A program made the position numbers. DNA of 37,584 bases. Source: a virus (lineage: Duplodnaviria > Heunggongvirae > Uroviricota > Caudoviricetes). The DNA lies in the IMG/VR virus record IMGVR_UViG_2537562191_000055; one strand, given 5' to 3'. This document shows positions 9,001 to 12,000 of the stretch, one piece after another (the stretch's first letter is position 1; each line of letters starts with the position of its first letter).

Positions 9001-12000
9001 GAGCGTGAAATCCACCGTCTGCGTTTCCAGCAGTCCGGTCTTTATCACCCACAGCCCGGCACGGTGGGCCTGACCGCGACTGGTGCAACCGAACGCATCC
9101 ATCTTCAGCAGGTTGCGCCCGTAGCGCAGTATGGCTTCCGGGTCTTCCACCAGTTCCGTGGAGGTCTGCCAGCCGTTCTGCGGGTCGGTGTAATTCACCT
9201 CCACCGCCGTGTGGCGGTCCTTCAGGGCGCTGAAGCTGTAGCGAAACCCCACGCCGTTATCATCCACCACCACATCGCTGTTGGTGTACGGCCACACCAC
9301 ATCCGACGGGCGGTCCTGAACGAACGTCAGCGTCTGGCCGTTCCATACCGGCATACAGCGCATCGCCGAGCAGAAATCACTGAGAACGTCCCACGCCTTA
9401 CGCTGTTGTGACAGGTACGCATTAAAGGTCATCCGCGGCTCTGTGCCCCCGAAACCATCCGGGACCGTCTGGTCGCAGTACTGCCCGATGGCATACAGCG
9501 CCCACTTGTCCACATCCGCCGCCCCCAGACGTTTTCCCATGCCGTAGCGCGGGTGAGTCAGCATGTCCCACAGACACCAGGCCGGGTTGTTGCTGTATGC
9601 CGGTTTCAGACTGCCGTCCCAGATACCACTGTACGTGCGTTTTTCCGGGTCATAGTTTGACGGCACCTGGATGATGCGACCGCGGATATGGTAGTTCACC
9701 GTCATCTGCTGGCCGCCGAACTGCTCCGCATCCACCTGCAGCCCCACAATGGCCGTGTTCGGGTAGCACTGTTTCACATCGATGATTTCGGTGTATGACG
9801 ACCACAGCGTCTTATTCTGCAGCTGGTCCGTGGTGCTGTCCGCCGTCTCCCTGACCATCCGGATGTTAAAGGGCCGGGGAGGCAGATTATCCAGAATCAC
9901 CGAGGCCAGGAACTGTGAGGTGGTCTTGCCGTTAATGGTGACATCCTTTTCCGTCACCCAGTTACCGTTACGCTGCAGCTGAATCAGCAGGCGGACGGAT
10001 GCCGGGTTACGGTCACCCTGTGAGGTGGTCTGCACCAGTGACTGCACCCCGAAGGTAACCCGCAGGCGGTCAATGTTCGCGGACGTAATGGTGCGCGTCA
10101 CCGGCTTTGCCTTCGTCACTTCCACGCCCAGTGCGGTTTCAGAGCCGGATGACTCAAAACCTTCCGGCGGTGTCTGCTCCTGCTCCCCGGCGCGCCAGAC
10201 CGCGGTCACACCGTGTATCACGGGATTGCCGTCCGTGTCCGTCAGTGGGGTTTTGTTCACCAGAATACTCTGCAGCCCCTTCACCGGACCTTCAATCGGC
10301 CCTTCACCAATGGCGTCAATCACGCTCATCATCTGCGTGGACTTAAGATTGTCCTTTGCCTCTACCGGCGTGTGCCCCTTGCCGCCCCCTTTACCCACTC
10401 TGTCCCCCTCTCCTGTCTGATGTCTGAATCTGTTTATGCCAGAAAACAACAGGCACCCCGGAGGGTGCCTGTGTCATGACGGAATAAAATTTCTGAAACT
10501 CTTCACATTTCCGGCAATTGCCTGTAGCCGCAATAATGACGCTGCATTACTTTTTTGATGCCTGAAAAATAACTCCATAACGTTAATCTTCATCGTTCTC
10601 TCCCGCAGCTCCGCTAACTCTGCGGGATTTTTTTATTTTCATCCCCGCCCGATAACCACCACTTTCCCGTCTCCGCCCTCATCACGGGTGCTGATGTCCT
10701 GGGATATCCGTCGTGAACCAACCAGCATTTCACCATAAGGCACCGGCATCGGGTTCCCCTGGGCAATCATGTTATCCAGTGACGAAAAATACGTGTTCTG
10801 TTTACCGTTATCCGTCGCCCTGTACTCCGGTGTTTTTGCCTTCGGTGCCAGCATCTGGGCCACACCGCCCAGTATCATGCTGGCACCCAGTGAGAACAGC
10901 ATCGTGGTGGCAGTCAGCCCTCCGGCACTCAGGGCTGCGCCCCACAACGCCATCGTTGCGCCGGCGGTGAAGAAAGAGCCCACGATGGCTGCTGCCCCCA
11001 GCACAATCTGCAGTCCGCCCTTTCCGGCCCCGGCCAGTCGCGGCACAATGTGGATGACCGCCCCCTCACCCAGAGGTTCGTGAAGACGGGCGTACACCGC
11101 CTCCGGTGCCGTGTCCTCACCGCGAATACGTATCTGGTACCAGCCTTCGTTCATCTGACGGCGGAATCCCGGCATCTGCAGCGACAGGGCACGGATGGCT
11201 TCCGCTGCCGTGTTCACGTACAGGCTGAGGCGGCGGCCAAATCGTTGCAAATCCCCGTGAAGGCAGATGCGTGCCAGTGGCGGTGACGCCAGACAGAATG
11301 CGTTCGTCGTTGCCATTTTTCAGAATACCTCTCCCGTTTACTCAGTTGTTCAGGCAGATGGTGAAGCAGTTCACCGTTGCCGCAGTATATGGCGGCATGA
11401 TTGGCCACCGATGCGCCAAAGCAGCACAGCAGGATATCGCCCGCCTGTGCAGAGGACAGGGGCACCCGGTAAAAACCAGTCGCCGCCATATTGTCCAGGT
11501 AAAGGTTCTGACCGTTGCGCCACCAGTCATCCTCACGCTCAAAATCCGGCAGCGTTATCCCCGCCAGATGGTATGCATCCCGGAACAGGGTGTAACAGTC
11601 CGTCACCCCGTGCTCAAAACGACGCCCGGTCAGGTGCGGCACACAGCGGAATTTATGAATTTCCCCCCGGCAGACCAGCCACCAGGGCAGGGCACTCTTT
11701 ATCTGCAGCCGCCGGTCGGCCTCGCTCAGCCAGGGCAGACCACCAGGGTGGCTGTGAACCAGCGCCACAATCTCCCCCTGCATCTCTGCCTGCAGCCAGT
11801 CTTCCGGCGCAATACGAAAATACGCCTCCGGCTCTGCGGAGATATTCACGCAGGGCTGGTACCGTTCGCCCTCCGGGGTGCCTATCACGAAGCCGCACGA
11901 CTCCGCAGGCGCACACCGCCGGGCATGCACCAGAATCGCTGATTCAGTCTGTGTCATAAAACAGGATTTACTGCGAAAGTTTATTGATGGAAAGGAAACC

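Follow-up and report, generated by a model that had tools for sequence, protein, structure and literature searches.

The closest described counterparts of the element analysed here are prophage-encoded small RNAs (sRNAs) of pathogenic Escherichia coli. In enterohaemorrhagic E. coli (EHEC), Tree et al. 2014 (Mol Cell 55:199, PMC4104026, Table S2) listed EcOnc22, EcOnc23 and EcOnc24, located in prophages Sp15, Sp14 and Sp11, respectively, as homologous plus-strand peaks obtained by Hfq cross-linking and analysis of cDNA (CRAC). EcOnc22 gave a northern blot size of ~85 nt and was destabilised in a Δhfq mutant (PMC4104026), and its target was still given as unknown in a 2021 review. In enteropathogenic E. 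coli (EPEC) E2348/69, Pearl Mizrahi et al. 2021 (Sci Adv, PMC8550237, Table S6) reported PasB, an 83-nt RNA of prophage PP6 (NC_011601.1 1466343->1466261, minus strand). Its log2 fold change in Δhfq was −6.8 and −2.4, and it made 37 interactions detected by RNA interaction by ligation and sequencing (RIL-seq), with chimera counts of apparently 258 in the activating versus 1820 in the non-activating condition (PMC8550237). The same table notes EHEC homologues for PasA and PasD and none for PasB, and a 2026 preprint (Zhu, Shabalina and Storz) describes PasB as embedded in the operon of phage structural genes, with its seed just upstream of the terminator. Here we examined the spacer between tail genes I and J of the IMG/VR virus record IMGVR_UViG_2537562191_000055 (Caudoviricetes), whose 37,584 nt are referred to as the window in the rest of the text. 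We conclude, with a probability of about 0.85, that this I-J spacer is a moron carrying an Hfq-dependent sRNA gene of the EcOnc22/PasB family that points against the late (tail) operon.

The window spacer is identical at 240 of 240 positions to the I-J spacers of the E. coli O157:H7 Sakai prophages Sp15, Sp14 and Sp11 (2902691-2902930, 2676622-2676861 and 2166672-2166911 of the current record, respectively, where the minus strand carries the tail genes). The coordinates published in PMC4104026 refer to the older record NC_002695.1 and were mapped to NC_002695.2 using AgvB1, whose sequence is known, as a control. This gave a shift of ~+140, the older record running ~140 nt lower around 1.94 Mb and evidently at 2.17-2.90 Mb too. 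Taken literally on the current Sakai record, the EcOnc22-24 peaks fall on the wrong hairpin, a placement that the AgvB1 shift and the probe sequence correct. Once re-mapped, the peaks lie at the same offset in all three Sakai spacers and correspond to window ~10561-10625. The northern probe for EcOnc22/23/24, a 35-mer beginning GGGAGAGAACGATGAAGATTAAC (Table S3C, PMC4104026), is placed on the window minus strand at 10604..10570; the match was read on its first 23 nt, which match 10604..10582 exactly. Since the probe has the minus-strand sequence, the RNA that it detected is the plus strand, antisense to the tail operon, and the plus-strand hairpin followed by seven Ts is thus the terminator of a known Hfq-dependent sRNA. 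No sequence difference separates EcOnc22/23/24 from the window spacer, to which strand, CRAC peak position and northern probe all map. Tree et al. 2014 gives peak coordinates, the ~85-nt size and Hfq dependence, and no gene limits, promoter, terminator or target. AgvB and AsxR, our first guess for the identity of the RNA, were ruled out, as those sRNAs sit at the PR′ moron site. Searches of Rfam, in E-value mode on 10000-11000 and in gathering mode on the whole window, returned no family match in the spacer and one chance match to SNORD16.

PasB sits between a tail assembly gene and gpJ, both on the plus strand, in the opposite orientation. Its northern probe, AATCCCGCAGTGATCGCGGAGCT (PMC8550237), carries the tail-sense sequence of the plus-strand hairpin as it occurs in sister spacer variants (loci L002, L004 and L013), indicating that EcOnc22 and PasB belong to one family. 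Aligned to the window, PasB is identical at 61 of 76 aligned positions (~80%), plus seven gap columns; the alignment places the 3′ end of PasB on the U7 run and the 5′ end at 10559. PasB shares with the window the I-J site, the antisense orientation, the terminator hairpin, the seed blocks, an upstream box and a -10 element, as well as the reported Hfq dependence; the window variant differs by a weaker -35 and by AATAAT as its -10. An Hfq-bound plus-strand RNA of ~85 nt is made from the identical sequence in Sakai, and its ~80% homologue of 83 nt is made in EPEC E2348/69. NC_049945 and NC_011356, host phages of Pas RNAs in the 2026 preprint, are also matches of the window spacer. In the literature searched, we found no report of a link between EcOnc22 and PasB and no functional follow-up of PasB with Hfq, and the main text of the 2026 Pas preprint (Zhu, Shabalina and Storz) makes no mention of EcOnc, CRP or any promoter. 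The core of the finding, the sRNA gene, is already known, though unannotated; the new points are modest, namely the equivalence of EcOnc22 and PasB, the anatomy of the gene with its CRP-like box, and its tandem arrays.

Relatives of the gene were gathered from BLAST matches to phage records, from a motif scan of IMG/VR, and from 80 IMG/VR loci chosen by their I protein alone. The resulting set contains 72 unique cassettes and 56 unique sRNAs of the family represented by the window (family 1). The sequence shows that the sRNA ends at the plus-strand hairpin and U7, a predicted Rho-independent terminator with an 8-bp stem (10601-10608 paired with 10620-10627) and U7 at 10628-10634. An earlier prediction made from the sequence alone (hereafter the original prediction) had placed a plus-strand hairpin with eight Ts at 10602..10635; the hairpin stands, and the run is T7, followed by A and T4. 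Of the 56 unique family-1 sRNAs, 55-56 retain the seven inner stem pairs, a single double change (G-C to A-U) being seen, and the loop varies in sequence and in length, from ~4 to 20 nt among the unique cassettes. The sRNA folds at −20.3 kcal/mol (z = −3.9). The best-conserved blocks of its body, AACUCC(U/A)UAA and UUAAUCUUC, are single-stranded in the consensus fold, and the CUCC(U/A)U box resembles an anti-Shine-Dalgarno sequence. Within the window, complementarity to the sRNA is limited to a 12-mer (17245, minus strand) that falls inside an open reading frame (ORF) and precedes the next start by 57 nt, and to a 13-mer (957, minus strand) that falls between ORFs, with no ORF start within 60 nt of it. 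By our own estimate this amounts to three overlapping complementary 12-mers versus 0.36 expected, and no conclusion on targets was drawn.

A putative promoter was recognised by comparison of the cassettes. A hexamer with at least five of six matches to TATAAT lies exactly 24 nt past an upstream palindromic box in 64 of the 72 unique cassettes, and the intervening 24 nt vary. The -35 of the window variant, TTCCGG, is poor, and most relatives carry TTCACA at 16-nt spacing. The core consensus of CRP sites is TGTGA-N6-TCACA, which the box matches at 9 of 10 positions; on the minus strand it reads AAATGTGA-N6-TCAGAAAT, and AAATGTGA is a perfect half-site. The box is centred at 10499/10500, 32.5 bp before the -10. 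With no more than one mismatch allowed, the 37.6-kb window contains three core matches, versus 1.29 expected. Within the sample chosen by I protein alone, a 700-nt search found the exact box in 62 of 62 cassette-bearing junctions; across relatives the half-sites are invariant and the central N6 is variable. We found no report, in the literature searched, of a TATAAT-like -10 at fixed spacing from an invariant CRP-like box. CRP activates transcription from class II sites at −41.5 and from class I sites at −61.5 or at more distant positions on that face of the helix; the box itself would be centred at about −44.5 for a start at 10544 and at about −59.5 for a start at 10559. We hypothesize from the sequence that CRP could control the sRNA promoter. 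Such control agrees with the behaviour of PasB in the EPEC data, which is opposite to that of CRP-repressed Spot 42: PasB was more abundant in overnight static lysogeny broth (LB; non-activating) than in Dulbecco's modified Eagle medium (DMEM), and Spot 42 was higher in DMEM (PMC8550237).

Several observations weigh against this interpretation of the locus. The terminator column for EcOnc22-24 is empty in the table of Tree et al. (PMC4104026), which is probably due to the unusually long 11-nt loop. A scan for consensus sigma-70 promoters on both strands of 9900-11200 returned no promoter; the scan is blank at the sRNA promoter because the -35 is weak in the window variant, and the promoter call thus comes from comparison only. 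If transcription began at the G of position 10544, 7 nt past the -10, the RNA would measure 91 nt here and 98 nt in E2348/69, compared to published sizes of ~85 and 83 nt, respectively; a start at 10559, the 5′ end of PasB, would give ~76-77 nt. The published sizes of 83-85 nt may be estimates, from gels or from coverage, of a 91-nt RNA; otherwise the RNA would be trimmed after its 5′ U-run. For a start at 10544, the box would be centred at neither the class II nor the class I position. Finally, the difference in PasB between LB and DMEM is confounded by growth phase.

We propose that each cassette is ordered as box, promoter, ~91-nt sRNA and terminator. Transcription would start near 10544 from AATAAT, and a 5′-processed form may start near 10559. 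The promoter would be governed by the invariant CRP-like palindrome, which would fit the higher level of PasB in overnight LB than in glucose-containing DMEM. The sRNA would act in trans with Hfq through the single-stranded CUCC(U/A)UAA...UUAAUCUUC region just 5′ of the terminator, and its trans targets would probably be ribosome-binding regions.

Phage VT1-Sakai and several other Shiga toxin (Stx) phages match the spacer region at 100% identity, and ~140 further phage records match it at 73-87%. Of 5,426 complete E. coli genomes, 802 carry the spacer stretch, the median being three copies and the maximum nine. A pattern scan of one genome per species found it only in E. albertii and in three tiny contigs of unrelated assemblies; among these species representatives, E. 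albertii looks like the only genuine host outside E. coli. Very short contigs carry the spacer in assemblies of Asaia platycodi, Parendozoicomonas haliclonae and Streptomyces flavalbus (L019, L020 and L022), most likely as contamination. The flanks of the window diverge from those of Sakai Sp15 just outside the spacer region.

Comparison of I-J junctions across lambdoid phages, which the original prediction had proposed as a check, showed that the unit is an insert. All 74 lambda-type junctions in IMG/VR have a gap of 59-60 nt and no cassette, and the statement that I and J are essentially contiguous in lambda is roughly right, its gap being 60 nt. Relative to lambda, the insert measures ~180 nt. 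The suggestion of a small moron holds insofar as the insert is moron-like; its cargo is an antisense sRNA and not a 39-codon ORF. In the sample chosen by I protein, the junctions carried one cassette in 59 cases, two in 3 and three in 2. Two or three tandem cassettes lie between I and J in L024, L039, L064, L206 and L210, and four tandem cassettes, each with box, -10, body and terminator, fill a gap of ~915 nt in L074 (IMG/VR contig 2728369607_000007, 1-1835). No report of tandem arrays of up to four cassettes was found in the literature searched. These loci also revealed a second subfamily (b15, b26, b37, b44 and b69; found for example in L024, L039, L064, L074 and L206), which has the upstream box and AACUCCUUAA in common with family 1 and keeps the CUCCUUAA block. 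Its 3′ half differs (GGUGACUAUUCG), its terminator is CUCCCGU...ACGGGAG followed by U6-7, and two of its five cassettes are without a recognisable -10. A gap of 851 nt was found in 12 junctions of the I-selected sample (L152, L156, L164, L166, L172, L176, L177, L179, L181, L184, L186 and L204). There, a reverse-oriented Cu,Zn superoxide dismutase (sodC-like) gene with its own terminator replaces the box and promoter; what remains of the cassette downstream of sodC is the 3′-terminal ~100 nt of the sRNA plus the terminator. The longest reverse-strand ORF is 219 aa and reaches the edge of the stretch examined.

We raise tentatively, as a possibility that we would not favour at present, that the I-J junction of Stx-type lambdoid phages is an expandable docking site for modular, reverse-oriented, CRP-controlled sRNA cassettes, of which EcOnc22-24 and PasB would be one family, and which late mRNA could neutralise. 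If so, all cassettes would share one CRP-like box with constant spacing to the -10, each site would take one to four cassettes drawn from two or more subfamilies, and sodC would sometimes take the promoter side. The prophage would then feed Hfq-dependent sRNAs of an anti-Shine-Dalgarno type into the host network according to catabolite state, and the late mRNA made after induction, which would carry the perfect complement of every cassette, could neutralise them.

The limits and contents of the gap itself were examined as well. The ~240-bp spacer with two opposed hairpins and a 39-codon ORF between I and J was confirmed at 10399-10638 (240 nt), and the RefSeq annotation of the identical Sakai Sp15 spacer has the same limits. 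Gene I stops at a TGA (10641..10639, minus strand), and J starts at the GTG at 10398, preceded by the Shine-Dalgarno sequence AGGAGAGGGGG at 10414..10404 (minus strand). Read in the direction of the tail genes, the gap contains an A7 run with a hairpin (CCCGCAG / CUGCGGG), the 39-codon ORF, a 10-bp hairpin, and 50 nt to J. The CCCGCAG / CUGCGGG hairpin has a T-run on the plus strand only, and given the sides on which their T-runs lie, both hairpins would terminate transcripts leaving the centre of the spacer, in opposite directions. Three terminator-like sites in 1.3 kb, versus 1.1 ± 1.0 expected from shuffles, are not significant alone; the case for both gap hairpins rests on conservation, since dozens of variants preserve the two stems, and the plus-strand loop differs among them in both sequence and length. 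Just upstream of the ribosome-binding site of J, a 7-nt unit (CAGACAT / TCAGACA) is present in about two copies (10415-10432, minus strand); in phage 2851 (L008), about four copies extend the gap to 259 nt.

The minus-strand hairpin and U-tract that had been predicted before J are present at 10472..10449. The 10-bp stem, with seven G-C pairs, encloses a 4-nt loop, is followed by the tail UGUUUUCUGG, and ends 50 nt before J. The stem is conserved, with one pair that covaries between C-G and U-A through U.G intermediates, and is always followed by (U/C)G and U4-U6, with U5-U6 in most relatives. Each junction has a single copy of the hairpin, next to J, however many cassettes it holds, and this copy marks the J-proximal edge of the insert. 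It is replaced by a non-homologous hairpin with a T-run in L013 and eight other IMG/VR loci (gap 340-343 nt). These gaps show a strong hairpin flanked by runs, AAAA-CCCCGGTATC-TGCT-GATACCGGGG-TTTCTCTTT, and a second hairpin, AGCATG...CATGCT-TTTC. In phage Stx2a_WGPS2 (L009, AP012537.1 42630-43444), an IS66-family element lies directly after the sense-strand hairpin and parts the cassette from J. The 60-nt gap of lambda also holds a sense-strand hairpin, AAACCGCC-UGCG-GGCGGUUUU (DNA AAACCGCC-TGCG-GGCGGTTTT; L018 200-340 = lambda 15399-15539), which is kept in 74 of 74 lambda-type IMG/VR junctions (L225-L304). Both are G+C-rich stem-loops that carry their T-run on the tail-sense strand and lie some tens of bases ahead of J. 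They share no sequence similarity, and they differ in stem length and in distance to J, with 8 bp (followed by TTTT) and 26 nt in lambda compared to 10 bp and 50 nt in the window. We know of no functional study of either hairpin. The minus-strand hairpin looks like a feature of the I-J junction separate from the sRNA gene, a putative tail-sense intrinsic terminator judging from its sequence. It would stop non-antiterminated tail-sense transcription in lysogens, and Q-modified polymerase would read through it after induction.

Among the alternative explanations, a main role in cis fares best, although we regard it as unlikely; it is not mutually exclusive with an sRNA moron. Antisense or convergent transcription would lower J expression or trigger RNase III cleavage, and late mRNA would act as a sponge for the sRNA after induction. 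The gene is always antisense within the late operon and directly upstream of J, and it follows from the sequence that any late transcript must hold a 91-nt perfect complement of the sRNA. However, the stretch of late mRNA that would pair with the sRNA lies outside any coding sequence and is separated from the ribosome-binding site of J by more than 140 nt, related phages do without the cassette (lambda) or with sodC in its place, and Hfq dependence together with the 37 RIL-seq partners points to trans action. The original prediction had also considered a regulatory element for J; such a role might exist as a secondary cis-antisense effect.

We consider it very improbable that the insert is instead a protein-coding moron in which the 39-codon ORF would be translated from GGGAGAG and end at the minus-strand terminator. 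The window variant does contain the ORF, a plausible Shine-Dalgarno sequence upstream of 10593, as had been predicted, and a same-strand terminator after the ORF. Short hypothetical proteins of 50 and 32 aa, inside or across the spacer, are also entered in two GenBank phage records (KF030445.1 8393-8545 and PV340549.1 42553-42651), probably as miscalls over the sRNA gene. Yet among 65 unique cassettes the start position is ATG in 33 and ACG or ACA in 32, indels shift the frame in relatives, and the encoded peptides, 6 to 39 residues long, have unrelated C-termini. The Shine-Dalgarno sequence of the ORF lies within the 3′ arm of a hairpin. The only conserved residues, the N-terminus MKINV.EL, are the complement of the conserved sRNA seed blocks, which makes the ORF a by-product. 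RefSeq annotates nothing under the spacer among the 30 E. coli genomes listed, and neither the peptide nor nearby coordinates were found in those supplements of the Sakai ribosome-profiling study that were searched, which is a weak negative. The ORF, which lies on the strand opposite to the sRNA gene, was rejected as a gene on account of its lost starts and differing frames.

A type I toxin-antitoxin system, in which the small ORF would be the toxin mRNA and the plus-strand RNA its antisense antitoxin, appears scarcely credible. The ORF is fully overlapped by the convergent sRNA and each has its own terminator, but the ORF is not conserved, its peptide is charged and amphipathic rather than a hydrophobic membrane peptide, and the cassettes occur in arrays of up to four copies. 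Moreover, the sRNA binds Hfq and makes many trans interactions, unlike typical type I antitoxins. Just as improbable is a pair of back-to-back terminators acting as an insulator with no gene between them: two opposed terminator-like hairpins do flank ~130 nt of variable sequence, but probes inside the spacer revealed a discrete Hfq-dependent RNA on northern blots in two pathotypes, the -10 and the upstream box are conserved at fixed spacing, and the whole unit is duplicated in tandem. The antisense-transcription insulator of the original prediction was therefore abandoned, the plus-strand hairpin being the terminator of the sRNA seen by Hfq cross-linking and northern blotting.

Identifying the spacer as an EcOnc22/PasB gene removes a false small-protein lead and joins the EHEC and EPEC literatures, in which the same sRNA family bears different names. 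It also supplies the anatomy of the gene, with a terminator, a likely promoter and a candidate regulator site; the predicted promoter and the catabolite-control hypothesis are useful starting points for studying the function of the sRNA in pathogenic E. coli. The sequence is found in hundreds of complete E. coli genomes and has neither RefSeq annotation in the genomes listed nor an Rfam model, and spurious small proteins have been called over it in some phage records.

Table 1. Window coordinates of the sRNA gene, its predicted control elements and the neighbouring features.
Feature	Position	Strand	Basis or detail
sRNA EcOnc22 (PasB family), antisense to tail operon	10544..10634	+	CRAC, probe, PasB alignment, fold; 5′ end predicted
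Rho-independent terminator of sRNA (predicted)	10601..10634	+	stem UCCCGCAG/CUGCGGGA, 11-nt loop, U7
Likely seed / Hfq-contact region, predicted single-stranded	10571..10591	+	AACUCCAUAA (10571-10580), UUAAUCUUC (10583-10591)
Predicted -10 AATAAT of sRNA promoter	10532..10537	+	fixed offset from upstream box
Palindromic CRP-like box, predicted	10489..10510	.	core TCTGA-N6-TCACA at 10492-10507
Intrinsic-terminator-like hairpin, tail-gene strand	10439..10472	-	ACAGGCACCC-UCCG-GGGUGCCUGU then UGUUUUCUGG
39-codon ORF of the original prediction	10593..10474	-	present with GGGAGAG upstream; not a conserved gene
Tail assembly gene I, 225 aa	10639..11316	-	ORF list; RefSeq annotation of identical Sakai junction
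Tail tip / host specificity gene J	6922..10398	-	ORF list; RefSeq annotation of identical Sakai junction

Elsewhere in the window, two identical matches to the ALIL pseudoknot (Rfam, 121.5 bits each) lie in inverted orientation at 23366-23482 (minus strand) and 33750-33866 (plus strand), each beside a 296-aa ORF; we take ALIL to be the frameshift signal of IS3-family transposases.

The EcOnc22/PasB gene can be compared with two known systems. Like the anti-sRNAs AgvB and AsxR (RF02702 and RF02703), it is prophage-encoded, short and Hfq-bound, ends at a Rho-independent terminator, and occupies a conserved moron site of lambdoid phages. It differs from them in that they lie downstream of PR′ and not in the tail operon, and in the absence of both sequence similarity and any Rfam match in the spacer; the likeness drawn is one of gene features. 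As far as the lambdoid morons of Juhala et al. 2000 are described where that work is cited in PMC4104026, the insert resembles them as extra DNA between two genes that adjoin in relatives, with its own terminator and a predicted promoter. It differs from the morons so described in that its cargo is a reverse-oriented RNA gene, repeatable one to four times.

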